Shown here piece by piece: positions 26,287 through 50,770 of a DNA stretch of 64,000 bases; position 1 is the stretch's first letter; the number at the start of each line of letters is the position of its first letter. The translations under genes and the position numbers were made by a program. The notes beneath the pieces are model-generated. The model worked only from the letters and a program-made list of their open reading frames with translations. It made no database searches and was not told the DNA's origin. The stretch is from assembly GCA_017936565.1 (NCBI GenBank), contig JAGBFG010000043.1, positions 25,473 to 89,472 of the forward strand. The letters are read 5' to 3'. Source of the DNA: Clostridia bacterium. Lineage in GTDB: Bacteria; Bacillota; Clostridia; Oscillospirales; CAG-272.

Positions 26287-26423
26287 GAGCCAAATGCCGT
26301 TTTTAACCTCGCGCAGGGCTAAAAAAAGGGGAAAAACCGTGACCCCCTTCCCTGTTTCTTTTATCGTACAATAATAGACGGGCAAGGGCGTTGCCCACAC
26401 ACGAAGGAAGAAAGGAAAGCCAA

Positions 26424-26807
26424 ATGCCAATAAGCGAGCTTACACGAGAGCAGGTCCTCTCGCTTTCCAAAAAAATGATGCATTATTTTGAAACGGCGGG
26501 ATGCGAGGGCAGCGAATTTAAGGAAGGACTCCCATCCTTTGTTCGCTTTGCACACCGCGAGGGGCTGACAGTCAAGGGCATTTTGGCACTACGGGAAAGG
26601 GACGAGGTATTTCGTGACTGTTATGCCGAATGCGAAGAAATCTTGAAGGACAGAATCACCGACGGGGCTTTATATAAAAGGTTGGATTCCTCTTTTGCGA
26701 AATTTTTGCTTGCGGCACGGTACGGATACACCGACAAGGAAGAGGGTGAGGAAGAGGGCGGCTTCTCTTTGACGGTGACTGTGAAGGAGCCAAATACTTG
26801 CTCTTAA
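26424..26807 (+). CDS. Phage terminase small subunit (putative)
   Basis: 127 aa located directly upstream of, and overlapping, terL. LPSFVRFAHREGLTVKGILALRERDEVFRDCYAECEEILKDRITDGALYKRLDSSFAKFLLAARYGY resembles HTH-type small terminases. Confidence 0.6.
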   Translation: MPISELTREQVLSLSKKMMHYFETAGCEGSEFKEGLPSFVRFAHREGLTVKGILALRERDEVFRDCYAECEEILKDRITDGALYKRLDSSFAKFLLAARYGYTDKEEGEEEGGFSLTVTVKEPNTCS

Positions 26808-28168
26808 AGGATATGGAGCTTTCCGTCACCAAGCGACAATATGAATTTCTCACAGCCAATGCCACAGAGGTTTTGTTTGGTGGGGCGGCAGGCGGCGGAA
26901 AATCATACGGTCAGCTGGTAGACGCCTTTGTTTACGCCTTGCGTTACCCTTCTTCCAAACAGTTGATTTTGCGGCGCACCTATGCCGAGCTTGAAAAATC
27001 GCTTATACGCGTTTCCTTAGGGCTGTTCCCGCAAACCATTTACCGCTACAATTCTTCCTCTCACACGGGCAAATTCAAAAACGGAAGCGTAATTGACTTT
27101 GGGTATTGCGCGGTGGAAAACGATGTTTTCCAATACCAATCCGCTGAATATGACGTCATTCGCTTTGATGAGCTGACGCATTTCACGGAATTTCAATACC
27201 TATATCTTATTTCGCGCTTGCGGGGCGCCAACGGCTATCCCAAGCAGGTCAAATCCTCTACCAACCCCGGGGGCATTGGGCATATGTGGGTAAAGGAACG
27301 GTTTATTGATCCTTCCCCGCCCAACACCGTTTTTTCCGACGGAAAGAACTCCCGTATCTTTCTGCCCTCCCGCATTGATGACAACTTGTTTTTGATGGAA
27401 GGGGACCCTGACTACAAAAAGCGGCTTTCCGAATTGCCCGAAACACAAAAAAAGGCGTTGCTTTATGGAGATTGGAACATTTTTGAGGGACAGTATTTTC
27501 CCGAATTTTCCCAAGAGCTTCATATCTGCGAGCCCTTTCCCATTCCGCCCGAATGGCGCCGTTACAGAACCTTGGATTACGGACTTGACAGACTCGCTTG
27601 TTTATGGGTGGCTATTGCACCAAACGAAGACGTTTATGTCTATAAGGAGCTTTGTGAGTCAAATTTGATTATATCCGAGGCGGCAAGCGCTATTTTAAAG
27701 CGAAACGGAGATGATAAGGTTTACGCAACCTTAGCGCCCCCCGATTTATGGAGCCGTTCCCAAGAAACCGGAAAAAGCAAGGCTATTCTGTTTGCGGAAA
27801 ACGGCGTTCCCTTCACCCGTTCCGGCAACAACCGCGAGGCCGGTTGGCTTGCCTTGAAGGAATTGCTTAAAATTCGTGAAGACGGAACACCGCGCCTTCG
27901 CATTTTCAGACAATGCCGAGAGCTTTGCCGATGCTTGCCCTTGCTCCAAATCAACCCCGACGCACCCACCGACACCCTAACCGAACCCCACGCCATTACC
28001 CACGCGCCCGACGCTTTGCGCGGCTTTGCCATCACCTTCACCCATCCCGCCAGGGTGGAAGAGACAAAAAAGCGCATTCCTTGGACCCAGGATATGTGGC
28101 AGGATTATATGCGGGCATCGGAAGAGGAAAAGCGTTACTTGAAACAAAAATACGGAGAACCATTATGA
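26798..28168 (+). CDS. Phage terminase large subunit
   Basis: Walker A FGGAAGGGKS, Walker B VIRFDELTHF, STNPGG coupling motif, and a C-terminal nuclease-like half. TTG 26798 lies 8 nt after GAAGGAG; ATG 26813 is an alternative. Confidence 0.88.
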   Translation: MLLKDMELSVTKRQYEFLTANATEVLFGGAAGGGKSYGQLVDAFVYALRYPSSKQLILRRTYAELEKSLIRVSLGLFPQTIYRYNSSSHTGKFKNGSVIDFGYCAVENDVFQYQSAEYDVIRFDELTHFTEFQYLYLISRLRGANGYPKQVKSSTNPGGIGHMWVKERFIDPSPPNTVFSDGKNSRIFLPSRIDDNLFLMEGDPDYKKRLSELPETQKKALLYGDWNIFEGQYFPEFSQELHICEPFPIPPEWRRYRTLDYGLDRLACLWVAIAPNEDVYVYKELCESNLIISEAASAILKRNGDDKVYATLAPPDLWSRSQETGKSKAILFAENGVPFTRSGNNREAGWLALKELLKIREDGTPRLRIFRQCRELCRCLPLLQINPDAPTDTLTEPHAITHAPDALRGFAITFTHPARVEETKKRIPWTQDMWQDYMRASEEEKRYLKQKYGEPL

Positions 28169-29970
28169 ATCTTTCTCACATTTGCGACAGACTTTCCTTT
28201 TTTCAGGAGTTATATCGCAAAAACCGCAACCGACAAGCCGAGCTTTTTAACCGCTTTGAAAGGTACTTGGCGCAATACAAAGGGGATAAGGAAATAGACC
28301 GTTCAAGTGAAGCAGCATCGGTTGTGCGCAACATTACCTATGAGCTGGTGGAATCTCAGGTTTCCACCCAAATTCCCGCGCCCTGCGCCCAAGCCAAGCA
28401 CTACACGGAGCAAAATGACCGCAACGCCAAGGCGATTGAGCGCCTTTGCACCCAGCTTCGCGACGAGCTGCCCTTTGAAAAGCTAAACGACCAGGACGAG
28501 CGCTATACCTACATATACGGCGGAAGCGTTTGGCTGGCGGAATGGGACAACACCCTTCTTTACCGAGGGGTAACGGGCGGGGTTCGCGTTTCCTGCTTGA
28601 ACCCCTTGGACTTTGTTCCCGAGGCGGGCGTTTATGAAATTGAGGATATGGAATACTGCTTTTTGCGGTTTTCCACCACAAAAAACGCCATTATCCGCCG
28701 CTTTGCCCTTCCCGAGAGCGAAATACCCCTTCTTTCTGCTGAGGGGAACGAGGACGACATTGTGGAAATGATCGTTTGCTTTTGGAAGGACGACGAAGGT
28801 CATATTTGTCAGTTTATTTACAGCGGAGACGCGGTGCTTTCAGACGTTGAGGACTATTACGCGCGCAAAACGCAGGTTTGCAAGAGGTGCGGCAAGAAGC
28901 GCTTGCTCTGCCATTGCGACACCCCCTCTCTTATTTGGGCTTCCGAGGAAGAAGAAATTTTGACCGAGGACATTCATTTAGAGGACGGGCGTGTCATTCC
29001 TGCCCTTTCCCCTGTGATAAAGGACGGGTTTTGCGAAGAGACCTTGGCCCCCACGCGCCTGCCGTATTACAGACCCCACCGCTTCCCCATCGTTATCCGC
29101 AAAAACACATCAGAGGAAAAATCGCTTTTCGGGCAATCCGACTGCGAATTTATCCGCCCTCAGCAACAGCAAATCAACAAGATTGAAACCCGTATCCTGC
29201 AAAAGCTGATGCGCTCCGGTATCACCCCCATTTTGCCGGATGACGCGGAGCTGACCTTGGATAATTCTGTTTTTGGGCAAGTTATTAAGCTACGCACAGG
29301 AGATGAAAAGGAGCGGTACGGCGTCTTAGACACAACCCCGAGCATTGCTCAGGACATTCAGCAATCCGAGCGTCTGTACGAGCACGCAAAGCGCATTCTC
29401 GGCATCACCGACACCTATCTCGGTATGTCGGACTCCACCGCGCAGTCAGGCTTTGCCAAGCAAATTCAAGTGGAGCAGGCGGCGGGAAGACTGGACTCCA
29501 AGCGCAAAATGAAGCAGGCGGCTTACGCGGATTTGGACCGCATTCTTTTTGAATTTTACTTAGCCTATGCCGATGAGCCTCGTCCTCTTTCCTATCGGGA
29601 TGCCTTTGGCAAGCCCCATCACACCGCCTTTTCCCGTTACGACTTTTTGATTTATGACACGGAAAGCGACACGTATACCTATGACGACGGCTTTTTGTTC
29701 TCGGTAGACCAAAACGGTGCTATCGAGCAACAACGCGATGCGCTTTGGCAGAAGAACTTAGAAAATCTGCAAGCGGGAACCCTTGGCGACCCTGCCGACC
29801 CTGCCACGCTTCTTCACTATTGGCAATGTCAGGAGCGCGCGCACTATCCTTACGCGCGAGAAAACGTGGAGTATTTTCAAGCCTTAACAGAAAAAGAGCA
29901 AGCCCCCTTGCCCCAAGATGCACCAGCACCGCCCGAAAGGAGCCCTGAAACAAATGCCAAAAAAACTTGA
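28165..29970 (+). CDS. Phage portal protein (putative)
   Basis: 601 aa immediately after terL with an ATGA start/stop overlap. Size and position fit a portal. The in-frame extension back to 27913 lies inside terL and was discarded. Confidence 0.7.
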   Translation: MNLSHICDRLSFFQELYRKNRNRQAELFNRFERYLAQYKGDKEIDRSSEAASVVRNITYELVESQVSTQIPAPCAQAKHYTEQNDRNAKAIERLCTQLRDELPFEKLNDQDERYTYIYGGSVWLAEWDNTLLYRGVTGGVRVSCLNPLDFVPEAGVYEIEDMEYCFLRFSTTKNAIIRRFALPESEIPLLSAEGNEDDIVEMIVCFWKDDEGHICQFIYSGDAVLSDVEDYYARKTQVCKRCGKKRLLCHCDTPSLIWASEEEEILTEDIHLEDGRVIPALSPVIKDGFCEETLAPTRLPYYRPHRFPIVIRKNTSEEKSLFGQSDCEFIRPQQQQINKIETRILQKLMRSGITPILPDDAELTLDNSVFGQVIKLRTGDEKERYGVLDTTPSIAQDIQQSERLYEHAKRILGITDTYLGMSDSTAQSGFAKQIQVEQAAGRLDSKRKMKQAAYADLDRILFEFYLAYADEPRPLSYRDAFGKPHHTAFSRYDFLIYDTESDTYTYDDGFLFSVDQNGAIEQQRDALWQKNLENLQAGTLGDPADPATLLHYWQCQERAHYPYARENVEYFQALTEKEQAPLPQDAPAPPERSPETNAKKT

Positions 29971-30631
29971 AGATTTTATCAAACAATACTTAGCCAACAA
30001 AAAAATCGAGGACTATGAAGGCTGGGTCAGCCAATACGGGCAAGACACAGCAAAGACCTACAAGCAAGCCCTTGCCGATGCTGATAGCCGCTACGCCGAG
30101 GCGCAGGCAACACACGGCACAAAGGCCGCCGCCCTGCTTTCCCGCGGTATGACGGGAAGCGGATACAGCGATTATCTTTCGGGGCTTGCCTACACCGAGC
30201 GCCAGAAGGAGCGACTGACGGCAACGGAAAAGAAAAGCCAGGCGGACGCCGACAACAAAAAGAACTATGCCCTTTACACACAAGGGCTGACGGCGGAGGC
30301 GGAAAAGGCCTTTGCCGAAAAGGAAGCCCGCCTTTCTTCCGCCTTTTCCGCTCTGCTCAAACAAGAGGTAGAGACGGTTGAGGGCGCAAAAGCCTTTTTA
30401 ACAGCCAACGGTATCGAAGAGGAGCTTGCCGAGAAGATCGCGCAAGGAAGCGTGGATATCATTCGCAATTCCTCGGGCAAAAAGAAGGAAGTGCTCGAAT
30501 ACGTGTTGGGAAAATATATGCCCTACGAGTACGCCTATCAATACGCCATAGCCTGCGGGCTTTCCGAAAAGCTGGCTGAGGAGGTCGCGCGCGCCGCACA
30601 GAGCATGCGTAATTCCGTTTGGGACAGCTAA
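29954..30631 (+). CDS. Phage head-module protein of unknown function (helical, Ala/Glu/Lys-rich)
   Basis: 225 aa from ATG 29954, overlapping the portal end by 17 nt. No motif recognised. Confidence 0.45.
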   Translation: MPKKLEDFIKQYLANKKIEDYEGWVSQYGQDTAKTYKQALADADSRYAEAQATHGTKAAALLSRGMTGSGYSDYLSGLAYTERQKERLTATEKKSQADADNKKNYALYTQGLTAEAEKAFAEKEARLSSAFSALLKQEVETVEGAKAFLTANGIEEELAEKIAQGSVDIIRNSSGKKKEVLEYVLGKYMPYEYAYQYAIACGLSEKLAEEVARAAQSMRNSVWDS

Positions 30632-30649
30632 ACTTTTCATAATCAAAAG

Positions 30650-30675
30650 AAAGGAAGCCTTCGCAAGACGAGGGC
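30650..30675 (+). promoter_or_regulatory. SD-adjacent hairpin motif, copy 1
   Basis: AAAGGAA followed by GCCTTCG-caaga-CGAGGGC (7 bp including one G-U pair), then 13 nt to ATG 30689. Confidence 0.5.
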
Positions 30676-30688
30676 TACGGTCACAGCA

Positions 30689-30829
30689 ATGAAGAAACAC
30701 AACCTACCCCATAACCCCTATGCCACCAACAGCATCAACCCCATTCAAGCGCCCCACAAAGCAGAAAAAGAGCCTGCTTCCACGGTGAAGAAGGGGAATG
30801 ATTTGCGTATCAGACCCAACAGCAAATAA
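30689..30829 (+). CDS. Small basic/Pro-rich ORF (46 aa), hypothetical
   Basis: Own translation: MKKHNLPHNPYATNSINPIQAPHKAEKEPASTVKKGNDLRIRPNSK. It is below the ORF-track size cutoff, fills an otherwise empty 230-nt gap, and is preceded by the hairpin motif. Confidence 0.35.
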   Translation: MKKHNLPHNPYATNSINPIQAPHKAEKEPASTVKKGNDLRIRPNSK

Positions 30830-30862
30830 TCGCGTCAAAAAAAGCAAAGGAGAGCAAACGCA

Positions 30863-31360
30863 ATGATAGAACAAGAAAACAACCCCGTTTTGACAGAAGA
30901 AGCGCCGCCGTCACACTCCCAAGAGGAGCACACAGAAGAGCCAAGGGAACAAACGCTTGAAGACGAGCCTTCTGTTGACTCCCCCTTGGAGCAAGCACCC
31001 GAGGAGGAAGAAGCGCCTGCGGTGGATTATGCCCGTTTAGCCGAGGAAGACTTGAAGGAAATCAAATCCTTAGACAGCTCCTATGCCCATTTGCGTCATT
31101 TGGGAGAGCTTCCCAATGCCCGCCGCTTTGCTGCTTTGCGTGATTTGGGGCTTTCTGTCAAGGAGGCGCTGGCTGCCTCGCATCCCCATTTCACAAAGGA
31201 AAACGGAAAGGCGCATCTGCGCCCAAGCCTTGAAAAGGGCGCCGTTTCCCCTTTGGGTGTCCTCTCTTCCGAAGAAATGCGCCACGCGAAGGAGCTTTTT
31301 TCGGATTTGAACGATGGCGAAATACAGGCGCTTTACCGCCGCGTAAAACCAAGATATTAA
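30863..31360 (+). CDS. Scaffolding-like protein (acidic N-terminus, helical C-terminus), putative
   Basis: 165 aa with a strongly acidic N-terminal third (EEAPPSHSQEEHTEEPREQTLEDEPSVDSPLEQAPEEEEAP). Located between the portal and capsid genes. Confidence 0.45.
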   Translation: MIEQENNPVLTEEAPPSHSQEEHTEEPREQTLEDEPSVDSPLEQAPEEEEAPAVDYARLAEEDLKEIKSLDSSYAHLRHLGELPNARRFAALRDLGLSVKEALAASHPHFTKENGKAHLRPSLEKGAVSPLGVLSSEEMRHAKELFSDLNDGEIQALYRRVKPRY

Positions 31361-31384
31361 TTTTAATCAGGAAAGGATTTTTCT

Positions 31385-31798
31385 ATGCTCACACTTAAAA
31401 GAATTCTAAACCGCGCAGTCAATGTTCCCGAGCCGCAAAGACTCTCTCTTTCTGCCGAAGCGACAGTAGAGGAGGGCGCCCCCTTTGCCTTAAAGGACGG
31501 TGTTCTGACGGCTATGAAAGACAACACGGATTTCATTCCCCAATTCGTTTCTTACAGAAAGGAAGCCGCCAAAAAGACGGTTCTGGCATATCCCGTCAAC
31601 GAGGATATGGTTTTTGAAATTCCCCTCTCTGACGCTCCTGCCTCGATGATCGAGGGAAAGGAATATCTCTTGTCGGAGGACGGCTTGTCCTTAACCGCCA
31701 CCGCTGCTTCCGGCAGCTACAGAGGCGCCTTGCTTTTCGACCTTGCAGGTGCAGAACAAGCAACGGACAAGGTCCTTATTCGTTTTCCCCGCGCATAA
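31385..31798 (+). CDS. Head-module protein of unknown function (possible decoration or accessory head protein)
   Basis: 137 aa directly upstream of the capsid candidate. The call rests on position only. Confidence 0.35.
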   Translation: MLTLKRILNRAVNVPEPQRLSLSAEATVEEGAPFALKDGVLTAMKDNTDFIPQFVSYRKEAAKKTVLAYPVNEDMVFEIPLSDAPASMIEGKEYLLSEDGLSLTATAASGSYRGALLFDLAGAEQATDKVLIRFPRA

Positions 31799-31826
31799 TT
31801 AGAAACCAAGAAAGGATTTTTATACT

Positions 31827-32888
31827 ATGTCTATTATTTATTCTGAAAACAGCGGTCTTAACAATGCCGCCGTCGGAAAATTAGAAACCCCCTTAAAAAT
31901 GGTCATTGAGCACGAAAGCGATTTGCAGACCAAAAGAGGCGGTATTTGTGACTGGCTTTTCAACATTGAGCGCTCCACCAAATTCGGTGAGACGGTTGTA
32001 GGTCAAAATGAATTCGGTATTTTTGCCGCCACCGAAGAAGGCGCGGGCGCTGAAAATGACGAAATCCGCGAAACCTACCGCAAATTCATCGAGCACATCC
32101 AGTTTATGAAGGAGTTTACCATCACCGCGCAAATGATGGAGGACGCCAACTACGGCGTTGCCGCGGATGCCAAGCGCCGCGCAGAAAACTTCACCCGCGC
32201 TTACTACAAGACAATGCACAAGATTTGCGAATACGCCTTGGCAAACGGAACCGCATCCCAAGGACATTTTGCCAAAGCGGTTTTGGACTTGACCTCTCCT
32301 GACGGACTTCCCCTGTTCCATTCCGCGCACAAGTGGGGCGCGGGCGACAAGGTCGGCACGCAAAGCAACTACTTCTACGGCAATATCTTCAAGACGGGCG
32401 ATGGGGACGCAAGAGCCTATTCCACAGCCGCGTTTGAAGAAGCCTTGAACGAGCTTTCTTCCAAAATCCGCAATATGAAGGATGAAAACGGAGATATTCT
32501 CGGCTACACCGCTGACACCATTATTCTCCCCGGTAACCGCCCTGCCGCTGAGGCTGTGGCTAAAAAGGTTTGTGGGTCTGAGGGTGCTTTGGGTAACGGC
32601 TACAACGACATCAACCTGCAATGCGGTAACTGGAATATCGTGGTTATGCCCGACTGGCAGACCTCAGATGACCGCTGTATGATTATGTCCTCGGAGGCAA
32701 ACAAAAATCTTTGCGGCAATATGTTCTTTAACCGTGTGCCCTTAACCGTTTCCAACTGGGTGGACAACCATACGGGCAACTACATCTGGAATGGCAGATG
32801 CCGTTTCGGTGTTGGCTTTGGCTCTTACAAGCACATTTTGCTCGCCGTGGATTCCACATCCGCTCTTGCTGACGGAACGGCAATGTAA
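31827..32888 (+). CDS. Major capsid protein (putative)
   Basis: 353 aa with a strong RBS (GAAAGGA), located after the scaffold-like gene. Size and position fit an HK97-fold coat protein. No protease gene is nearby. Confidence 0.6.
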   Translation: MSIIYSENSGLNNAAVGKLETPLKMVIEHESDLQTKRGGICDWLFNIERSTKFGETVVGQNEFGIFAATEEGAGAENDEIRETYRKFIEHIQFMKEFTITAQMMEDANYGVAADAKRRAENFTRAYYKTMHKICEYALANGTASQGHFAKAVLDLTSPDGLPLFHSAHKWGAGDKVGTQSNYFYGNIFKTGDGDARAYSTAAFEEALNELSSKIRNMKDENGDILGYTADTIILPGNRPAAEAVAKKVCGSEGALGNGYNDINLQCGNWNIVVMPDWQTSDDRCMIMSSEANKNLCGNMFFNRVPLTVSNWVDNHTGNYIWNGRCRFGVGFGSYKHILLAVDSTSALADGTAM

Positions 32889-32908
32889 TACACCTTTAAG
32901 GAGACAGT

Positions 32909-33481
32909 ATGACAGGAAAAGAACTGATGGAGATTGTCGCCCAAATGGGCTTTGCCAAAACTCTGGACGATAATGAACCATATTTTTATCAAATGACAAG
33001 TCTTTCCCTTTTGCAAATTTCCCGCCATTTTCCATTGGTTAAAACCATCACCGTAGAGCACAAGGACGGCGCGGAGTATTACACCGAATACGACGTGGGT
33101 GCTTTGTGTGACGATTTCCGTTCTTTTCCCGAAAAGCCCTTGCGACTTGGCAGCTTGCTCTTGCAGGAGGGGCGCGACTTCCTGATTGAGGGAAGCCGCG
33201 TCCGTCTTGCTCTCGGGCACGAGGGAAATCTGGAAATCCGATATTGTCGCCGTCCTTGCAAGGTAAACGCCGATACACTCCACAAGGAATTAGACATTTC
33301 ACCCGAGGCATTGCATTTGCTCCCCTTGCTCGTATCCTCTTATCTTTGGGCAGACGAGCGGGCAGAGCTTGCCTCTCATTATCTTGCCTTGTTCCGCTCC
33401 GAGCTGAGCGAGGCAAAGAAGGAGCGTTTTGCCCATCAAATGGCAAGCTATCATTGCGGAAACGGATGGGATAAGGGATGA
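32909..33481 (+). CDS. Putative head-tail adaptor-position protein
   Basis: 190 aa with RBS AAGGAG. It lies between the capsid gene and the 978-aa protein (the position of gp4/gp11-type adaptors in P22/T7-like modules). It overlaps the next gene by 4 nt. Confidence 0.35.
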   Translation: MTGKELMEIVAQMGFAKTLDDNEPYFYQMTSLSLLQISRHFPLVKTITVEHKDGAEYYTEYDVGALCDDFRSFPEKPLRLGSLLLQEGRDFLIEGSRVRLALGHEGNLEIRYCRRPCKVNADTLHKELDISPEALHLLPLLVSSYLWADERAELASHYLALFRSELSEAKKERFAHQMASYHCGNGWDKG

Positions 33482-36414: not shown

Positions 36415-36443
36415 GCGCAGCCTTATCTCTTATATTCCATCAG

Positions 36444-36469
36444 AAAGGATGCTTTTGCAAAGCGAAAGC
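36444..36469 (+). promoter_or_regulatory. SD-adjacent hairpin motif, copy 4
   Basis: AAAGGAT followed by GCTTTTGC-aaa-GCGAAAGC (8 bp, one G-U pair), then 10 nt to ATG 36480. Confidence 0.5.
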
Positions 36470-36479
36470 CATAGAATAT

Positions 36480-37559: not shown

Positions 37560-37613
37560 GTACAGTGCCTCTTTTACGTCGGCTTTACCACATTTAACAG
37601 AAAGGATTACAAA

Positions 37614-38780
37614 ATGTCAACCTTTATTAACCTTTTATCCGACAGCACCTTTGCCGAAAAGATGGACACGCAAAACGCGCTTCTATCCGTCTTGGCAAGG
37701 TCGGATACCTTCAAATTTGAATCCTGGGCACAGCTGCAAGGCTTGGTGCGCTCAGGTCTTGCCTCTAAAATACTGTCCATTGGCGACCAATTTGTTTGCC
37801 AGAAGGAAGGGGAAGCCATCGCTTGGGACGTTATCGGAATTGACTGCGAAACGATTGACGCCAACGTTTTCCGCCACTCCATTACCTTACAGCTGCACAA
37901 TCCCATCGGTTTTCTGATTCACACCTTAACACAGGCTCTGTATTATTGCGAAAAAGCCTTGCCCGCGGGCACCTATCATTTTTATCTTTACAATTATTTG
38001 ACTCCGTCCGAGTCCGATTTATCCCAGGGCGTCAACCAATACTATTCCTTCACGCTGACAAAGTCTGTTCCCGCCAAGGGGCATATTCTTTTTCCAATGG
38101 GGATAACCAGCACCGCCCTCTCCACAAAGATATCCACCTATGATAGCGTCACATCCACCGAAGCCATTGAAACGGTTTCCGTGAAGCAGGGACAGGAAGG
38201 AACGCTTTTGCCCTCCGACAAGATTGCTTGCGCGGAAAAAATACGCTACGGCTACAACTCTTATAAGAATTCCCAAATCAGAACCTTTCTGAACAGCAAC
38301 TACGCCGCAGGCAGTATTTTCAGAAAAGGAGTTACAAACTTCGAGCATTTTGCCAGCTGGCCCTTCCCGAACAACGGCTTTATGTACGGTATGGACGAAG
38401 ACTTTTTAGCGGTTCTTTACCCTGTAAAAAAGAAGACGAAAACCAATACCGTCATGTCTGACGGAAGCTACGAAGTCACCGAGGATATCTTCTTTTTACC
38501 CTCGGCAAGCGAGGTCTTTGGTACACCGATTGAGGGTGAAGAAGGAGAAGGGGCGCCTTATCCCTATTATTCCTCCTTCTGCACCTCGCCGGAGCCTCAT
38601 GACCTTCCCGACAAGGGACGCACCAAATATAAAAAGGACGGCTCCGTTGCCTCTTGGATGCTGCGTACCGCGGTTTCCGATACCGTACACTATTGCAAAA
38701 TAATTGGCGCGAAGGGCAACGTCCCAAACAACCCCGCCAGCTTCTCGGCAAACATCGCCCCTCTTTGCGTCATTGCCTGA
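37614..38780 (+). CDS. Putative receptor-binding/fibre protein with DUF6273-like C-terminal region
   Basis: 388 aa. IFFLPSASEVFG...YPYYS...SWMLRTAV...NIAPLCVIA resembles the FLLS...WWLRS...RPA pattern I recall for DUF6273. Confidence 0.45.
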   Translation: MSTFINLLSDSTFAEKMDTQNALLSVLARSDTFKFESWAQLQGLVRSGLASKILSIGDQFVCQKEGEAIAWDVIGIDCETIDANVFRHSITLQLHNPIGFLIHTLTQALYYCEKALPAGTYHFYLYNYLTPSESDLSQGVNQYYSFTLTKSVPAKGHILFPMGITSTALSTKISTYDSVTSTEAIETVSVKQGQEGTLLPSDKIACAEKIRYGYNSYKNSQIRTFLNSNYAAGSIFRKGVTNFEHFASWPFPNNGFMYGMDEDFLAVLYPVKKKTKTNTVMSDGSYEVTEDIFFLPSASEVFGTPIEGEEGEGAPYPYYSSFCTSPEPHDLPDKGRTKYKKDGSVASWMLRTAVSDTVHYCKIIGAKGNVPNNPASFSANIAPLCVIA

Positions 38781-38799
38781 ACGGCAGAAAGGAAATTTT

Positions 38800-38958
38800 A
38801 TGTTTATTTATAAAAACATTCACCAAGCCTTGCAGGAGGAACGGCAAAAAAGCGCCGCTCTTTTAGCAAGACAAAAGCAAATACAAGCCGACATGGATTA
38901 TATCGCTATGATGACCGATGTTTCTCTTGACGGGGAGGAAAGCTATGACGAAATTTGA
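38800..38958 (+). CDS. Small phage protein (52 aa), hypothetical
   Basis: MFIYKNIHQALQEERQKSAALLARQKQIQADMDYIAMMTDVSLDGEESYDEI. ATG 38800 follows AAAGGAAA, and the gene overlaps XkdX by 14 nt. Confidence 0.4.
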   Translation: MFIYKNIHQALQEERQKSAALLARQKQIQADMDYIAMMTDVSLDGEESYDEI

Positions 38959-39085
38959 AAAAATCCGCGCCTATTATCTGGCGGGGCTTTGGTCTTACGG
39001 ACGTTTGAAGGACGCCGTATTAAAAAAATGGCTCACGCAAGAAGAGATGGAAAGCCTCGTCAAGGAAAAGGAAGCGATGCAATGA
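38945..39085 (+). CDS. XkdX-family phage protein
   Basis: Own translation (46 aa, below the track cutoff): MTKFEKIRAYYLAGLWSYGRLKDAVLKKWLTQEEMESLVKEKEAMQ. The IRxYYxxGLW...V.KxWLTxEE pattern matches XkdX, and there is an ATGA overlap with the next gene. Confidence 0.6.
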   Translation: MTKFEKIRAYYLAGLWSYGRLKDAVLKKWLTQEEMESLVKEKEAMQ

Positions 39086-39465
39086 AAATAGAAATATTGG
39101 ACGGCTTTGCCTTTTTCGCCGAGCAAAAGGAAAAAAAGGGGGCTTTCTATCTGACTCTTCCTAAGGAAGCCAAGGTGTTTCTGAACGGGCGAGCACTCGC
39201 GAACGAGCCCTTGCGCTTTTACCGCCTCTTCCCCACCGATTTAAGAGAAGGGGAAAACACCCTATCCCTTTACATAGAGGGTGCAAGCATTCCCTGTCAA
39301 GGACTTTTGCGCCATAACGAGCAAGTGACCCCCTTTGCCTTTCCGACGGAAAAGCTCCTGCTTGCCCTGCTTCACCGCCAAATAGACCAAGAAAAGCGGC
39401 AAAAGAAGCTCGAAGATGCACATCAAGCCTTGCAAAAGGAGATGCGCGGCGCCACCTTGTTTTAA
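39082..39465 (+). CDS. Phage protein of unknown function (127 aa)
   Basis: MKIEILDGFAFFAEQKEKKGAFYLTLPKEAKVFLNGRALANEPL.... Translationally coupled to XkdX, with a helical basic C-terminus. Confidence 0.5.
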   Translation: MKIEILDGFAFFAEQKEKKGAFYLTLPKEAKVFLNGRALANEPLRFYRLFPTDLREGENTLSLYIEGASIPCQGLLRHNEQVTPFAFPTEKLLLALLHRQIDQEKRQKKLEDAHQALQKEMRGATLF

Positions 39466-39536
39466 GGGAAAAACAAAAAGATATCTTTTTCTTCCCTTCT
39501 CTGTTTTCTTTGGGCACAGATGCCCGTAATATCAAG

Positions 39537-39562
39537 AAAGGAAGCCTTCGCGATGCGAATGC
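39537..39562 (+). promoter_or_regulatory. SD-adjacent hairpin motif, copy 2
   Basis: AAAGGAA followed by GCCTTCGC-gat-GCGAATGC (8 positions, one C-T mismatch), then 13 nt to ATG 39576. Confidence 0.5.
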
Positions 39563-39575
39563 TACGGTTATATAT

Positions 39576-40199
39576 ATGAAACGAATATTATGCTTGCTGT
39601 TTTTGTTATCCCTCATCCTTGGCGCTTTGTGTCTGACGGTGAACGCGCAAGAGCCGCCCTTGCCTGCATCAGAGGAGCAAGAGCCTCTTGCCGAATCAGC
39701 CACCGCCACCACCGAGGAAAAAAGGGTTTTTACCAACGCCATTGGTGACTTTCTACGCGAAAACGCCGAAAAAATCTTTTGTGCCTTGGCGTGTATTGCC
39801 TCGCTGATTCCCGGTTTTCTCTATAAAACAGGGCTTTTGCCCTTGCTTCGCTCCGCCCTCTCTGCCCTCTCGGACAGCGCCAACAAGGCTGGCAAAAAGA
39901 CGGAAGAATTTTCCGCCAATGCCGAAGAAAAATTGGCGTCATTACAGCAAGGAGCTTCGGCGGTTTTACAGGTTTCGGAGAATACCGTTGCCCTTTTACA
40001 GGAAGCCGAAGAGCGCTTAGCCGCATTAGAGGAAGCCTTGGCGCAAAACTTGAAGGAAAAGCAAAAAACCACCGCCGCCTTACAAACGGAAACGGAGCTT
40101 TTGTTCCGTATGCTTCAATGCGCCAATCTGCCGCAAGCCCAGAAGGATGCGATGTCTTCAAGCTTCTTTGCTCTGCAACAAACCTTAAAAGAAGAATAA
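39576..40199 (+). CDS. Signal-peptide-bearing single-pass membrane protein with cytoplasmic coiled coil, unknown function
   Basis: MKRILCLLFLLSLILGALCLTVNA|QE (signal-peptide-like), an acidic linker, a TM helix (IFCALACIASLIPGFLY), then a heptad-rich Ala/Glu/Leu tail. Confidence 0.55.
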   Translation: MKRILCLLFLLSLILGALCLTVNAQEPPLPASEEQEPLAESATATTEEKRVFTNAIGDFLRENAEKIFCALACIASLIPGFLYKTGLLPLLRSALSALSDSANKAGKKTEEFSANAEEKLASLQQGASAVLQVSENTVALLQEAEERLAALEEALAQNLKEKQKTTAALQTETELLFRMLQCANLPQAQKDAMSSSFFALQQTLKEE

Positions 40200-40242
40200 C
40201 GCCAAGAGGCAGCTTTTCTCTTTGGCGGAAGAAAGGATTTTT

Positions 40243-40584
40243 ATGGTCATTTTTTTTCGCATAGCAGGCTTTGCTCTTTGCACCCTTCCTGCTGTCATTT
40301 CATCCCTTGAACATTTCCCCCTTTGGCTTTCCGACAGAGCAAGCACCCTTTCTATTTTCGGACTCTTGGTCTTGCTTTTGGCGGTATTGCCCTTTTGGAA
40401 AGCCATAAAGCATTGGCTGAAAAGCCCGTCTGCTTGGATGCTTTGGTTTTTACTTTGGCTTTTTCTGTCGCTGTTCCGCCAAATCATTGACGGGCTGATT
40501 GCCGTATCCTTTGTGGCGTTTCCGTTCAGTATGCTTGGCGCGCTTTGCTTCTATTTGGCAAAACGGTACCAAAATCGAAAATAA
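40243..40584 (+). CDS. Small 4-TM membrane protein, unknown function (holin-position)
   Basis: 113 aa from ATG 40243 (RBS GAAAGGA) with four hydrophobic helices and a basic C-terminus (KRYQNRK). Confidence 0.5.
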   Translation: MVIFFRIAGFALCTLPAVISSLEHFPLWLSDRASTLSIFGLLVLLLAVLPFWKAIKHWLKSPSAWMLWFLLWLFLSLFRQIIDGLIAVSFVAFPFSMLGALCFYLAKRYQNRK

Positions 40585-40589
40585 AAGCA

Positions 40590-40633
40590 GGGCGCAAGAA
40601 GGAGAGCTGCCTTTTCCCTTGCGCCTGTTTTTT
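40590..40633 (+). terminator. Terminator-like hairpin between the two membrane-protein genes
   Basis: GGCGCAAG (40591-40598) pairs with CTTGCGCC (40618-40625), followed by TGTTTTTT. The loop is long, about 19 nt. Confidence 0.45.
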
Positions 40634-40646
40634 ATGAATCTGCAAA

Positions 40647-40672
40647 AAAGGAAGCCTTTGCGGTGCAAAGGC
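40647..40672 (+). promoter_or_regulatory. SD-adjacent hairpin motif, copy 3
   Basis: AAAGGAA followed by GCCTTTGC-ggt-GCAAAGGC (perfect 8 bp), then 11 nt to ATG 40684. Confidence 0.5.
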
Positions 40673-40683
40673 GTGGTTTTAAT

Positions 40684-41610
40684 ATGTCATCTTTTTTCCC
40701 CGAATCCGTTCAAGACGGCAAAAGCAATCTCAAAAGCGTGCTTTCTCATTTGGGTGTTCTCTCTGCCACCGTCACGCTTCTTGCCGTCTCCGCCTTGTTT
40801 TTTACCGATATTTCTCTTTTCTTCCAAGCATCCTTGGAATTTTCCCTGCATTTTCTTTTGCTTCTCTTCGCTTCCTACGTGATGTATTTTTCTTTGAGCG
40901 AAACGGGAGCTGAGCAGGCGAAAAAGGAGAAAGAATATGAGCTTGTCTTACAAAGAACCAATAAAAACCGTCTTCGCTTTCGGGAAGAGGGGACAATGGC
41001 TTCATTAAGCGCGTTTTGTGACAGCGTCAGCGAAAGAGAAACCCAAAACAAACGCAAAGCGCTTCTTTCCGCCTTTTGCCTTACCGAAGAGGACTTGGGT
41101 GCCTACGGTCCTTCCAATCCCCCCGCCGCCCTTTCCTCTCTGCAAAAAAGGGGTTTACGGAAGGTCGCGCGCATGCGCGCTGTTCGCATCACCCCGCCTA
41201 TGCTCCTGTTTACAAGAGAAGGGGGCGGATACACCGCCCCCTTGGCAAACGCCCCCGCCGTTTCTAAAATACGGCGCTTTCTGCCCTATTTATTCGCTTC
41301 TGCCTTCACCGCTTTTTTCTCAGTTTCGGTTATTTGCCAAATCATTTTCGAGCCAAGCCCTGCTTTGCTCTTGGGATACTTTTGCAAAATCTTCACCCTG
41401 GTCTTTAACGGTATCAAGGGATACAGAGCAGGCTATTGCAATATCAGCAAGGATACCGTTTCGTATCTTTCCGAGCAAAACGACCTGCTTGACGAGTATT
41501 TCAAGGACTTTTTGCCCTTCTTTTCGCCAAAAGCAAATGAGCCTGTGACGGATTTTATAGCGCAGGGCACCGAAGACGGAGCAGAATATAAAGAACAGTT
41601 GTCATTATAA
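40684..41610 (+). CDS. Membrane protein (2 N-terminal plus 2 C-terminal TM helices around a ~130-aa soluble domain), unknown function
   Basis: 308 aa from ATG 40684. The in-frame GTG 40663 lies inside the hairpin. It converges on the SDR gene and overlaps it by 6 nt. Confidence 0.5.
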   Translation: MSSFFPESVQDGKSNLKSVLSHLGVLSATVTLLAVSALFFTDISLFFQASLEFSLHFLLLLFASYVMYFSLSETGAEQAKKEKEYELVLQRTNKNRLRFREEGTMASLSAFCDSVSERETQNKRKALLSAFCLTEEDLGAYGPSNPPAALSSLQKRGLRKVARMRAVRITPPMLLFTREGGGYTAPLANAPAVSKIRRFLPYLFASAFTAFFSVSVICQIIFEPSPALLLGYFCKIFTLVFNGIKGYRAGYCNISKDTVSYLSEQNDLLDEYFKDFLPFFSPKANEPVTDFIAQGTEDGAEYKEQLSL

Positions 41611-42369
41611 TACCGTTTTCAACCAGAGCCAAGTCAAGAGACGGTCAGGCAACAGCTTGAACATCATATGCTGCAATTTTGTATACCAGTTTGTCACCGC
41701 CAGCAATTTTCCCCGTCTTGCGCGGGAAAGACCGTAGGCAACTACCCGTTTTGCCTTTAACAGGGGCTTGGGGTTTTTGGGATAAAGTGCCCCGGGTGTC
41801 GTTTGCGCGTTTTCCAAGAACTCCGTTTCCACCCAACCGGGACAAAAGCAGGTGACGGATATGCCCAAGGGCTTCACCTCTGCCCGAAGACCCTTGGCGT
41901 AATGTAGCACAAACGCCTTGGATGCGGCATATACGTTAAAATGGGGCAGGGGCGTGAAGCAAGATCCTGAGCCGATTTCTATAATATGCCCGCCCTTCTC
42001 CATATAAGGAATGGTGGCGTGCGTGATGAGAACGGTTGCCTTGCTGTTCAAATCTATCATACGGGAAACGTCCGTTTCGCTTATGTGCGCATAGTCGCCG
42101 AATTTGCCAAAGCCCGCCCCATTGACAAGGTAAACCACCTGCAAGCGATGCTCCTTCAAATAATCGGCATAGACCCTTACCGACTCTTCCTCACACAAGT
42201 CCAAGGGGAGAATATCCGCCTCTTTTAGCTCCTCTGCCAATTCCTCTAACCGCTCGCGGCGTCGGGCAATCAAAAGAAAATGATCCGCCTCGCCCCTTTG
42301 CTTGATCTGACGTGCAAACTCCCGCCCGATGCCCGAGGACGCTCCTGTAATAATGGCTGTTCTTTTCAT
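41605..42369 (-). CDS. Short-chain dehydrogenase/reductase (SDR) family oxidoreductase
   Basis: TAIITGASSGIGREFA (TGxxxGxG), NGAG, and YAASKAFVLHYAKGL (YxxxK). Confidence 0.85.
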   Translation of the reverse strand: MKRTAIITGASSGIGREFARQIKQRGEADHFLLIARRRERLEELAEELKEADILPLDLCEEESVRVYADYLKEHRLQVVYLVNGAGFGKFGDYAHISETDVSRMIDLNSKATVLITHATIPYMEKGGHIIEIGSGSCFTPLPHFNVYAASKAFVLHYAKGLRAEVKPLGISVTCFCPGWVETEFLENAQTTPGALYPKNPKPLLKAKRVVAYGLSRARRGKLLAVTNWYTKLQHMMFKLLPDRLLTWLWLKTVL

Positions 42370-42446
42370 CGTGTTTTTATCCCAAGCCTTTCTTTGTTTT
42401 TATACCCTTTGTGTAAACATATCTTTCCATAAAAGCAACCGCCCTT

Positions 42447-43064
42447 TTACCGCACGCGACTTTGAAAGGCAACGGCTTTTCCGATGATGCGCACCTCTTC
42501 CAAATCCGCGCCGATATACACCAAGGGCTCGTATGCGTTGTTTTCGGGAAGCAATATCAGCTTTTGCTTGTCGGGATAGTAATATACCCGTTTGAGCGTT
42601 GCCTCATCCCCAATGATCACCGCGCCAATTTCACCGTTTTCCAAGCTGTTCTGCGCGTGAATAAACACAATATCGCCGTCAAAAATCCGCGCCCCTGTCA
42701 TACTGTCCCCGCGAGCGCGCAGACAGAAGTCAGCATCCTCTATGCCGTCAGCCTCTGCATAATGCCCCCATTCCTCTTGGGCATAAATGGGCTCTCCGCA
42801 GGCGATTTCTCCAATCATCGGCAAACGGCGGTGGCGAACCTTAAAGGTTCCCGGCGCTTCCTCATTGTCCCAACCGTAAAGCAGGGCAGGAGAAATATGC
42901 AGGGCAGAGGCGATTTTTTCGACCTTTTCGTGTGGGATATTTTCAATTTTCCCATTTTCATAGCGGAAAACCGTTTGCCGACTGACCCCCAGCATTTGTC
43001 CGAGCTCTTCCATACTCAAGCCCTGCTGTGTGCGAAATTTGGCGATATTTTTTCCAATAGACAT
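42447..43064 (-). CDS. Phage CI/LexA-like repressor: XRE-type HTH plus S24 self-cleaving peptidase domain
   Basis: IAKFRTQQGLSMEELGQMLGVSRQTVFRYENGK (HTH_3), EIAC-GEP (Cys-Gly cleavage-site-like, as in UmuD), GDSM (Ser nucleophile) and LKRV (Lys). ATG 43064 follows GGGAGAAGGG. Confidence 0.85.
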   Translation of the reverse strand: MSIGKNIAKFRTQQGLSMEELGQMLGVSRQTVFRYENGKIENIPHEKVEKIASALHISPALLYGWDNEEAPGTFKVRHRRLPMIGEIACGEPIYAQEEWGHYAEADGIEDADFCLRARGDSMTGARIFDGDIVFIHAQNSLENGEIGAVIIGDEATLKRVYYYPDKQKLILLPENNAYEPLVYIGADLEEVRIIGKAVAFQSRVR

Positions 43065-43181
43065 ACCCTTCTCCCTTCCCTTTCCAAACAAAAAAACACC
43101 ATCTGACTTAGATTTCAAATCGCTTTTTTCTCTTGATTTCTTCCGAGTTTTCTCTCTTTGCGTCAGCGCTTTTTCGTCTTA

Positions 43182-43200
43182 TGTTGCATTTTTCGCAACA
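43182..43200. promoter_or_regulatory. Operator-like palindrome O1 (tGTTGC-N7-GCAACa)
   Basis: Perfect 6-bp arms with a 7-nt spacer. It lies about +12 to +30 relative to the leftward promoter. Confidence 0.45.
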
Positions 43201-43218
43201 TTCTCTCTTTTTTTCTCT

Positions 43219-43247
43219 ATTGTAACACATTTCGACATATTATGCAA
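43219..43247 (-). promoter_or_regulatory. Leftward sigma-A-type promoter (repressor gene)
   Basis: Minus strand: TTGCAT (43247-43242), 17-nt spacer, TGt-TACAAT (-10 at 43224-43219). Confidence 0.5.
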
Positions 43248-43273
43248 CACTTTTTTGAAAAAAATTTTAATTT

Positions 43274-43307
43274 GTTACTTGACAAGCAACAAAAAGTGTG
43301 ATATAGT
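43274..43307 (+). promoter_or_regulatory. Rightward sigma-A-type promoter overlapped by operator-like palindrome O2 (GTTAC-N7-GCAAC)
   Basis: TTGACA (43279-43284), 17-nt spacer, TGa-TATAGT (43299-43307). GTTAC (43274-43278)/GCAAC (43286-43290) brackets the -35 element. Confidence 0.5.
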
Positions 43308-43417
43308 ATAGATGAAGAAAAGAAAAAGACATTTGACGCCCCGCAAATTGTCGTTTCCATTTTCTTTTTCGGTTTTTTTATCCATGAAACAGGAAAAACC
43401 GTTTTATTTTTTCTTTC

Positions 43418-43440
43418 GTTGTTGCATTATACGCAACAAC
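43418..43440. promoter_or_regulatory. Palindrome O3 (GTTGTTGC-N7-GCAACAAC) in the rightward leader
   Basis: Perfect 8-bp arms with a 7-nt spacer and the same core as O1/O2. It could act as a DNA operator or as an RNA hairpin. Confidence 0.4.
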
Positions 43441-43518
43441 CCTGTAAATTATGCGCGGAAAAGTCTTTCCGACGCAAGCTGTTTTGCCACAGGACAAAGC
43501 AGCTGCCATACAAAAAAC

Positions 43519-43531
43519 GTTGCTCTGCAAC
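43519..43531. promoter_or_regulatory. Short palindrome GTTGC-TCT-GCAAC just upstream of the RBS of the 101-aa gene
   Basis: Same half-sites as O1-O3 but with a 3-nt spacer. It lies 5 nt before GGAG (43537-43540). Confidence 0.35.
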
Positions 43532-43546
43532 AGAATGGAGTTTTTT

Positions 43547-43852
43547 ATGATGTACATACAAACCGTTTCCGAGGCCACCCCCTTTTTGCTTCGCGCCCCT
43601 TATGAAATAAGGCAAGAGCTTTCTTCCTTGGAGGAATGCGTCAAGGATGCCAAGGAGAAGCTTTCCCGTCTTTATGCCGTCAAGGAAGAGTTAGAGGAAT
43701 TTGCCCTGCCCGAAGAGGTAGTGGAGCTGGTGGAAACAGAGCTTTTGGAGAGAATTGAGACCGTGCGCGAGGAAATCGACGAAATGGCATCAGATGCCTA
43801 CGCCTTATCCGAGGAATTGGAAGAAACGGTATATCTTCTCTATCAGAGATAA
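43547..43852 (+). CDS. Highly acidic helical protein (101 aa), unknown function
   Basis: MMYIQTVSEATPFLLRAPYEIRQELSSLEECVKDAKEKLSRLYAVKEELEEFALPEEVVELVETELLERIETVREEIDEMASDAYALSEELEETVYLLYQR. ATG 43547 follows GGAG. It is the first gene of the rightward transcript. Confidence 0.5.
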   Translation: MMYIQTVSEATPFLLRAPYEIRQELSSLEECVKDAKEKLSRLYAVKEELEEFALPEEVVELVETELLERIETVREEIDEMASDAYALSEELEETVYLLYQR

Positions 43853-43870
43853 TCCATTAATAGATCAGCT

Positions 43871-43937
43871 AACGGACACAACGGACAACAAAAACAGCAC
43901 AATGAGGCTTTTGATGCGGTATCTTTTGATGCGGTAT
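43871..43937. repeat. Iteron-like short tandem direct repeats
   Basis: AACGGACAC/AACGGACAAC (43871-43889) and a perfect 15-nt tandem CTTTTGATGCGGTAT x2 (43908-43922, 43923-43937), with a degenerate third unit following. Confidence 0.7.
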
Positions 43938-44044
43938 CCTTTTATCCGACACCTTTGCCTTCTCCCCCTTTTTTTCTGTTTTATGCCAAGACATCCCGTT
44001 TTGTCGTAACCGCACCCCGAAACCAAACGAAAGGAAGACTCTCT

Positions 44045-44365
44045 ATGGAAAAAAACCTTCTTTTGCCTCCCTCTGTCAGTCACACGGTACGGGCAATGTG
44101 TGAGGACTATGACCGTCGGGCAGAGGAAATTCACCGCGGCAAGCTCCCCGCAGCAACCCTTGGTCACTATATGATGCTCAACGCCGCCATTGACGAAGCC
44201 TTGAAGAGCTGCTGTGAGGAAGGTGTCTGCGAGCAAATCCGACGCGACATCGCCACGCAAACAGGTCACCGCTTTACACAGCTATATTATCTCTCTCCCG
44301 GTACATACAAGGACAGAAAGCGCAAGGGAAAATACGCCATCGCAAAGGCTTTGCACCTTTTATAA
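44045..44365 (+). CDS. Small Cys-containing basic-tailed protein (106 aa), possible regulator
   Basis: MEKNLLLPPSVSHTVRAMCEDYDRRAEEIHRGKLPAATLGHYMMLNAAIDEALKSCCEEGVCEQIRRDIA...YKDRKRKGKYAIAKALHLL. RBS GAAAGGAAG. Any regulatory role is inference from size and position. Confidence 0.45.
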   Translation: MEKNLLLPPSVSHTVRAMCEDYDRRAEEIHRGKLPAATLGHYMMLNAAIDEALKSCCEEGVCEQIRRDIATQTGHRFTQLYYLSPGTYKDRKRKGKYAIAKALHLL

Positions 44366-50669: not shown

Positions 50670-50770
50670 ATGTATGACCTGTCCTTCGCGCCAGCGAAGG
50701 CTCCCTTTCTTCTTGGGTTTTTGCTCCTACTGTGCAAAAGCGCCACCATAATGGCGGCGCTTTTGTCTAA

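Follow-up and report, generated by a model that had tools for sequence, protein, structure and literature searches.

A widely conserved short-tailed-phage-like locus in uncultured gut Clostridia is a candidate gene transfer agent

A 64-kb window (the whole stretch of DNA analyzed here; contig JAGBFG010000043.1, positions 25,473–89,472) from a Clostridia bacterium (CAG-272, Oscillospirales) contains a phage-derived element that encodes the parts of a podovirus-like particle and is probably a gene transfer agent (GTA)-type element of the host chromosome. The element is a single plus-strand operon that runs without interruption from 26.3 to 41.6 kb of the window, flanked on the left by a divergent DUF554 gene and on the right by a convergent SDR gene. 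We searched all 20 open reading frames (ORFs) of the region with Pfam and PHROGs profiles, compared AlphaFold2 (AF2) models of key proteins with known structures, and compared all window proteins by tblastn with 80 related loci (labelled L001, etc.). A preliminary description, made from the letters alone, had listed the packaging, head and tail genes of this array; the genes it named are correct, and it left undescribed three conserved membrane proteins at the operon's end.

The first half of the operon encodes the packaging motor and the head (Table 1). Profile matches identify the small (terS) and large (terL) terminase subunits and the portal; terS stands directly upstream of terL in 48 loci, and terL is 64–88% identical between species. 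The portal is followed by a 225-aa helical-repeat protein in a head-associated position, which has no informative match to a Pfam or PHROGs profile or to the PDB. In 65 loci the gene for an acidic 165-aa protein immediately precedes the capsid gene region, a position from which we infer a scaffold role. The 137-aa protein encoded immediately before the capsid has neither a PDB nor an NCBIfam match, and an NCBIfam scan of the main window proteins matched nothing except a LexA-like family for the repressor described below. The AF2 model of the 353-aa capsid protein (pLDDT 76) matches HK97-fold capsids, including those of SU10, HRP29 and the Rhodobacter-type agent RcGTA (6tb9). Its homologues bear PF25209 (Phage_capsid_4), and relatives also PF10124; capsid identity is 68–88% over at least 123 species. 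The profiles, the 35 acidic residues of the scaffold-like protein and the HK97 fold bear out the earlier assignment of terS, terL, portal, scaffold-like protein and capsid to one plus-strand array, and the ATGA overlaps noted there are seen at the terL/portal, adaptor/nozzle and XkdX/next-gene junctions.

The 190-aa and 978-aa proteins that follow, previously placed as adaptor and nozzle by position, belong to these classes by family and structure. The window adaptor alone matches SU10_adaptor weakly (E 0.008), and 18 of 30 members of its family match it, with a best E of 3.8e-8. The nozzle was identified by structure comparison only. Its AF2 model, built from 52 homologues, is of high quality (pLDDT 89, pTM 0.80), and its best Foldseek matches in the PDB are short-tailed-phage nozzles throughout (E 5e-19 to 3e-8): cyanophage A4, Kp9, LME-1, SU10, T7 gp12, HRP29, P22 gp10 and Sf6 gp8. 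Matches in a viral model library carry the labels 'tail tubular protein B' and 'P22 gp10'. Searches of PDB sequences with family profiles for the nozzle, the adaptor and the 137-aa and 225-aa proteins returned only leucine-rich-repeat (LRR) or meaningless matches. Comparing the nozzle and adaptor profiles with T7 gp12 and gp11 by hhalign gave no match; hhalign did align the nozzle with a virion protein of the Bacillus podophage Pascal at 97% probability. A BspA-type LRR domain is inserted in the nozzle at residues ~237–338. LRR_5 is found in 29 of 29 nozzle homologues tested, and a few more distant homologues (P0426–P0428, P0431) are without it. Because an adaptor and a nozzle are present and tube, tape-measure and sheath genes are absent, the encoded particle is of the short-tailed, podovirus type.

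Downstream of the nozzle, the operon is more variable. Across most loci only the N-terminal anchor of the 359-aa fibre-like protein is conserved, and the second fibre candidate, with its DUF6273 domain, is restricted to the closest relatives (L001–L003). The 'two fibre-like proteins and XkdX' of the preliminary description are thus recovered, the last as a 46-aa ORF with a weak Pfam match. Two small called genes, of 52 and 127 aa, flank it. The operon then ends in three membrane proteins. The 229-aa coiled-coil protein is kept at the same position in 51 loci. The 120-aa protein is holin-like by size and position only; it matches no holin family in Pfam or PHROGs. The 308-aa protein is the final gene of the conserved unit. 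All lineages have the three proteins at this spot except L066 and L070. There, a holin occupies the same position in L066 (Phage_holin_5_2, E 1.3e-8; 14993–15244), and L070 has a homologous ORF in the same place (~16990–17244); a 198-aa protein beside the L066 holin has no family match. Phage relatives of a sister capsid family, described below, carry a GH25 hydrolase and a holin after their tail genes. The three terminal proteins may form a release module or act as ejection proteins.

What the locus lacks is equally distinctive. Pfam and PHROGs gave no match to an integrase, replication protein, tail tube, tape measure, sheath, baseplate, prohead protease, or endolysin or other peptidoglycan hydrolase, and annotation of all 64 kb of the window returned no genes for mobility, replication or lysis enzymes. 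The element is not flanked by direct repeats of 12 nt or longer, and the window has no attachment-site (att)-like repeats. These results uphold the earlier reports that integration, replication, tube, tape-measure, protease and lysis-enzyme genes, and flanking repeats, are missing. What remains is a chromosomal cluster of structural and packaging genes without replication, excision or integration genes of its own, which is one of the hallmarks of a GTA. An intact temperate prophage was considered and rejected, with no integrase, immunity or replication modules, lysis cassette or att repeats contiguous with the operon, in contrast to phage PK1 and the phage contig fragment L107. A capsid-forming satellite of the cf-PICI (capsid-forming phage-inducible chromosomal island) type was rejected likewise: integrase, replication initiator or primase, and att sites were not found, and the tail is complete.

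Table 1 Features of the element and its right-hand neighborhood (window positions)
Feature	Position	Strand	Evidence or remark
Operon upstream control region	26315-26423	+	Holds the boxes below and a ribosome-binding site before terS
Conserved box AGGGCTAAAAAAAG	26315-26328	+	Upstream of terS
GACCCCC box	26341-26347	+	Upstream of terS
-10-like TACAAT	26367-26372	+	Upstream of terS
terS, small terminase subunit, 127 aa	26424-26807	+	phrog_3064 E 2e-7; weak GP3_package
terL, large terminase subunit, 456 aa	26798-28168	+	Terminase_6N E 1e-10; phrog_979 E 7e-47; Walker A GGAAGGGKS
Portal, 601 aa	28165-29970	+	phrog_156 E 5e-35
Helical-repeat protein, head-associated position, 225 aa	29954-30631	+	Kept in 49 loci
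Acidic scaffold-like protein, 165 aa	30863-31360	+	35 D+E of 165 residues
Protein directly before capsid gene, 137 aa	31385-31798	+	phrog_24113 E 4e-7; present in 43 loci
Major capsid protein, 353 aa	31827-32888	+	HK97 fold, AF2 model
Head-to-tail adaptor, SU10 type, 190 aa	32909-33481	+	Pfam SU10_adaptor at family level
Tail nozzle, 978 aa	33478-36414	+	AF2 model and Foldseek
Fibre-like protein, 359 aa	36480-37559	+	N-terminal anchor ~110-135 aa conserved, rest variable
Second fibre or receptor-binding candidate, 388 aa	37614-38780	+	DUF6273 E 7.5e-12; phrog_19280 E 2e-28
Small protein, 52 aa	38800-38958	+	Called gene; only in L001-L003
XkdX-like protein, 46 aa	38945-39085	+	Weak Pfam Phage_XkdX match
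127-aa protein	39082-39465	+	Called gene; homologues in L001-L003 and L006
229-aa protein	39510-40199	+	Signal or transmembrane segment, second hydrophobic segment, long coiled coil (hydropathy)
120-aa protein, four transmembrane segments	40222-40584	+	Hydropathy; conserved
Membrane protein, final gene of conserved unit, 308 aa	40684-41610	+	Hydropathy; kept in 50 loci
Host SDR gene	41605-42369	-	Separates operon from XRE/S24 gene
XRE-HTH/S24 self-cleaving repressor, 205 aa	42447-43064	-	Peptidase_S24 E 3e-25; HTH_3 E 2e-13; phrog_4 E 2e-41
Palindromes GTTGCA-N5-CGCAAC, two exact 17-bp copies	43183-43199; 43421-43437	.	Bracket promoter
Strongest sigma-70-like promoter of region	43279-43307	+	Faces XRE/S24 gene; reads into two small genes
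106-aa protein, candidate regulator, possibly associated	44045-44365	+	Second small gene

Comparison with related loci fixes the extent of the element. In the comparison with the 80 loci, the conserved core runs from terS through the last membrane protein. In the three closest genomes (L001–L003), the left flank of the window is present and a thioredoxin reductase gene directly follows the last operon gene, at the position where the window has the SDR gene, the XRE/S24 gene, two small genes and ileS. Synteny with these genomes stops at 41610; the conserved unit is therefore ~15.3 kb (26.3–41.6 kb), rather than the ~18 kb first proposed, and the SDR gene, whose stop codon overlaps that of the last operon gene, belongs to the host. 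In GC content, GC at third codon positions and codon usage, the element matches its host (relative synonymous codon usage r 0.94). The other genes of the window are ordinary host core genes: Tex, glycosyltransferases, DnaJ, a MiaB-like enzyme, pgsA, ileS, SCIFF and its maturase, proA/B/C, EF-Tu, EF-G and S7. The SCIFF peptide gene and its radical-SAM/SPASM maturase, a typical Clostridia marker, lie downstream of ileS at 49290–50917 (minus strand). A 523-aa ORF at 61785–63356 (minus strand), among well-annotated core genes, has no Pfam match at E 1e-5. Gene order is permuted in the subclade of L015, L016 and L025, and also in L037, L043 and L072, where the genes from scaffold and capsid to the membrane proteins come first and are followed by terS–terL–portal; in L043 the terminase genes are on neither side of the element.

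A scan of one genome per species found the element in at least 123 species-level genomes, all from uncultured Clostridia that live in the guts of ruminants, deer, yak and humans. The capsid has 1758 homologues, the best 120 clusters of which are 78–88% identical and lie on bacterial contigs of up to 358 kb. IMG/VR holds only 12 contigs with the element, mostly short fragments, and isolated phages include no close relative (terL at most 41% and capsid ~25% identity). In at least 25 species the element occupies the same site, directly downstream of an ABC-F ATPase gene that is itself preceded by an amino-acid ABC transporter, and in 17 of these species a DinG-like helicase gene follows it. A census of 138 distinct flanking ORF clusters from the 80 loci consists of housekeeping families; no integrase family occurs among the first 25 Pfam and the first 25 PHROG families listed, a range that a rare single-locus integrase could escape.

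The genes of the element have diverged together with those of the host and remain under purifying selection. Reading frames are uninterrupted in 59 of 60 (terL), 59 of 60 (portal) and 78 of 79 (capsid) loci. In the 25 species that share the ABC-F site, the identities of terL, portal and nozzle between pairs of species are correlated with the identity of the adjoining ABC-F protein (r 0.78–0.83), and mean identity is 80% for the capsid and 75% for terL, versus 69% for ABC-F itself. The least diverged pair, L031/L032, has synonymous divergence (dS) of 0.44 for ABC-F, 0.35 for terL, 0.46 for portal, 0.34 for capsid and 0.46 for nozzle, with ratios of nonsynonymous to synonymous divergence (dN/dS) of 0.02–0.11. 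Between the window and L001–L003, dN/dS is 0.06–0.33 for each element gene, in line with the host genes on its flanks; dS is saturated for element and flank alike. The cluster is thus inherited vertically with its host and kept by purifying selection, the second hallmark of a GTA, and long vertical co-inheritance under selection fits the distribution, the divergence and the dN/dS data. The intact frames, the shared site, dS equal to that of the flank and low dN/dS contradict decay, recent integration and satellite behavior. The synteny and selection checks called for at the outset come out in the same direction (same locus in at least 25 species, intact frames, dN/dS 0.02–0.33), and together with the breadth of hosts and the housekeeping flanks they favor the original suggestion of a domesticated or GTA-like element over a decaying prophage or a satellite.

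A single promoter-like element is conserved at each locus, upstream of terS, in sequence that is otherwise not conserved. The layout GGGTCAAAAAAA ... CCC-N6-AGT ... TACAAT is shared by the window with L001–4, L006, L009 and L019, where it likewise precedes terS; the group of the window and others have the GGGTCAAAAAAA box and then (G)TACCC or GACCCCC ~20 nt upstream of TAnAAT, and other lineages have a related rTACyyy box and TAnAAT. In the ABC-F group, ATACTTACA-N17-TATAAT occurs in 19 loci, once per locus and nowhere else in the locus. Because the -35 region is strongly conserved yet does not resemble that of sigma-70 promoters, it suggests a dedicated activator or sigma factor for the terS promoter.

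A second regulatory region lies to the right of the operon. The XRE/S24 protein carries the visible S24 catalytic motifs GDSM and KR, and the two exact palindromes that bracket the strong promoter facing its gene are probable operators. The 106-aa product of the second small gene belongs to a family with no Pfam entry and only 126 clusters in 1.84 billion representatives, and a metagenome scan for it recovered one short locus. XRE homologues adjoin the element in L036, L041, L085 and L074, and in the first three of these the XRE gene, at the element's right end, is accompanied by a homologue of the 106-aa gene (40–44% identical). The two are separated in L036 by the gene of a DUF6291 protein (E 7e-17; 17119–17661, minus strand), which suggests that the pair comes from a phage early region; it may be what is left of the ancestral early region and may still gate the operon in some lineages. 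The XRE/S24 switch proposed in the preliminary description stands as a repressor, by its S24 and HTH_3 matches, and is only loosely linked to the operon, with the SDR gene between them and operators at its own promoter only. The terminator proposed to be shared with ileS is present and bidirectional, and it follows the 44045–44365 gene and not the structural operon. An 11-mer found both upstream of terS and in the repressor region was discarded, being near chance level (expectation 0.08 for intergenic sequence and ~0.4 for wider edge windows).

The closest precedent is FpGTA of Faecalibacterium prausnitzii, a podovirus-like GTA whose 40-nm particles carry 8.4–8.9-kb fragments of host DNA (Borodovich et al., Nat Commun 2026; preprint 2024; PMC12946183). 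A short-tailed version in Firmicutes, thought unusual when the locus was first described, is therefore not without precedent. FpGTA operon I (10.5 kb) encodes terS, terL, portal, a Prp-like protein, an N4-gp56-type capsid, adaptor, nozzle and, at its end, a TolA-like protein that is abundant in the particles; a separate, distant 5.5-kb operon carries fibre, holin and endolysin genes (PMC12946183). GTA-like packaging of host DNA has been seen in other gut Clostridia lineages, with genes known only for Faecalibacterium (PMC12946183). The window element resembles FpGTA in being a podovirus-type locus of a gut Clostridia chromosome without replication or integration genes, in the order terS, terL, portal, head proteins, capsid, adaptor, nozzle, in near-ubiquity within its host clade, and in a nozzle that matches P22 gp10 (8eap), a structure cited by the FpGTA authors; its own particles are predicted. 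The 229-aa coiled-coil protein may be analogous to the TolA-like protein.

There are also differences. The FpGTA capsid is annotated as N4-gp56 family (RCH50849.1), whereas NCBIfam returns nothing for the window capsid at E up to 0.1, and the relatives of the latter are of the Phage_capsid_4 or Mu gpT-like types. FpGTA has a Prp-like gene before the capsid; Pfam finds none in the three ORFs between portal and capsid in the window, the 137-aa ORF being negative in NCBIfam as well. FpGTA is split between operons, whereas the window has one 15-kb operon with fibres and three membrane proteins and no endolysin. The conserved LRR domain in the nozzle is a further feature of the window element. Members of the sister capsid family examined for a link to FpGTA included no Faecalibacterium protein. 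Since its capsid is not of the N4-gp56 type and it has no Prp-like gene, the element is grouped here with the GTA-like, domesticated podophages as a form of its own, set apart from the FpGTA family by FpGTA's annotations. A literature search returned no further description of such an element beyond the FpGTA paper.

Other known systems are more distant. RcGTA is a vertically inherited head-to-tail cluster under purifying selection that lacks replication and integration genes and likely needs functions encoded elsewhere. The window element is a cluster of this type and its capsid model matches the RcGTA capsid; RcGTA differs in its long non-contractile tail, its unrelated sequence, its phylum (Alphaproteobacteria) and its CtrA/GafA regulation, for which no counterpart was identified in the window element. 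The PBSX tail is contractile, with a sheath, tube, tape measure and baseplate, and the prophage also encodes a holin and endolysin of its own and a sigma-like late activator. With PBSX/skin-type elements the window shares a Firmicutes host, particles that package DNA, an XkdX homologue and a nearby Xre-type repressor, whereas Pfam and PHROGs found none of PBSX's contractile-tail, holin–endolysin or late-activator genes. A PBSX-type contractile particle was accordingly rejected, the weak XkdX match being the sole trace of such a module.

Among free phages, the relatives are the Bacillus phages PK1 and Pascal (Pagevirus), HTVC023P-type pelagiphages and gut Caudoviricetes contigs of 41–45 kb. They share the module order of capsid, SU10-type adaptor and tail proteins, ~35–41% identity in terL and ~25% in the capsid, and a nozzle-region protein. 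The genomes of PK1, Pascal and the pelagiphages are ~40–60 kb, with low identity to the window element; PK1, the closest isolated relative by terL, is temperate and has recombinase, repressor and replication genes. A holin is present in Pascal and in L107, the latter encoding a GH25 hydrolase in addition. A sister family of ~10.8 kb (L093, MT836833.1, 1–10829; L094; MT836592.1) has the order terL, portal, 277-aa, 126-aa, capsid, 198-aa adaptor-sized protein, 621-aa nozzle-like protein and two more genes. It occurs on human faecal virome scaffolds and on Oscillospiraceae, Ruthenibacterium, Gemmiger and Allofournierella contigs of up to 332 kb, and may be a second GTA-like family; its capsid family is also present in the 41–45-kb phage contigs.

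Taken together, these data make it probable, with considerable room for doubt, that the locus is what remains of a short-tailed phage, now fixed in the chromosome, inherited vertically and kept by host selection for complete podovirus-like particles, and thus a GTA-type element. Several observations weigh on the other side. Here the particles are predicted from the genes, and a cargo of host DNA is presumed. The capsid model is a monomer and yields no triangulation number, and hence no head capacity to set against the 15-kb locus. The terS N-terminus, judged by eye, is an ordinary helix-turn-helix, which leaves room for sequence-specific packaging. The dN/dS values are rough in most comparisons because synonymous sites are saturated. 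Gene order is permuted in one subclade. Three metagenome bins hold two differing copies each (L011 and L037, L043 and L049, L021 and L077), which could reflect paralogy, transfer or bin contamination. The window contains no further exact copies of the palindrome, and so none at the terS promoter; the link between switch and operon is conjectural, since the switch is missing beside the element in L001–L003, the ABC-F group and most other species. Finally, no endolysin was found in the window to account for release.

The alternative that survives best accepts domestication and disputes gene transfer: the particles could be DNA-packaging bacteriocins like PBSX, or an adhesion or delivery device acting through the LRR-bearing nozzle. 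The same conservation evidence applies to it, the XkdX homologue and nearby Xre-type repressor recall PBSX, and the FpGTA authors keep this killer-particle or non-transfer explanation open for their own system (PMC12946183). We regard it as unlikely, although it is the chief rival. The terS, terL and portal genes are among the most constrained of the element (dN/dS 0.04–0.16) and DNA packaging itself is therefore selected, and no contractile or puncturing apparatus is encoded by the criteria of Pfam and PHROGs.

A locked-in prophage remnant might instead package from a pac site and mobilize mainly the adjacent chromosome, in the manner of lateral transduction, rather than random DNA. A terS that looks conventional, a temperate nearest isolated terL relative with recombinase and repressor (PK1), and a fixed chromosomal site in many species would suit this model, which we nonetheless consider improbable, since conservation across family-level divergence is unexpected for a mere remnant. 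Still less probable is a mobile small phage or capsid-forming satellite that borrows replication, integration and lysis from a helper. The two loci in some bins, the permutation of L015, L016 and L025 as if integrated elsewhere on a circle, and the 12 IMG/VR contigs speak for mobility; against them stand a window without integrase, primase or att repeats, the absence of integrases from the flank families listed, a complete tail of its own, unlike capsid-forming satellites, dS equal to that of the flanking host gene, a site shared by at least 25 species, and near absence from viral collections. A decaying, functionless prophage fragment, which the many missing phage modules might suggest, is very hard to reconcile with frames that stay intact despite saturated synonymous sites, dN/dS of 0.02–0.33, and a capsid and terL on average more conserved than an ABC-F housekeeping protein.

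If the locus is a GTA-type element, it might operate as follows. Upon induction in a subpopulation, the terminase would fill heads with any DNA that it engages, mostly host DNA. Release would occur by lysis, through the terminal membrane proteins and a wall hydrolase encoded elsewhere, and the fibres and LRR-bearing nozzle would then bind related cells, to which the DNA would be delivered. The LexA-like XRE/S24 protein probably represses the small operon here and in a few further lineages, and the 106-aa product may activate the terS promoter; this activation is the weakest step of the scheme.

A fuller account, which we hold tentatively and would be slightly inclined to doubt as a whole, is that an ancient podophage was domesticated separately from FpGTA and gave rise to a GTA family that has descended vertically within a clade of family rank, made up of uncultured Clostridia from herbivore and human guts. 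This family would be distinguished by a dedicated promoter type, an LRR-bearing nozzle and three membrane proteins that serve release or ejection where the ancestor had its holin and endolysin, and it could underlie some of the GTA-like packaging seen in gut viromes. The locus is in any case a widely conserved candidate for another host-DNA-packaging system, in bacteria not yet cultured. If it is active, the capsid and nozzle would serve as marker genes for detecting such elements in metagenomes, the locus would be a second independent case of the taming of a short-tailed phage and a warning that such elements can be misfiled as prophages, and GTAs would turn from a curiosity into a trait general to gut Clostridia.

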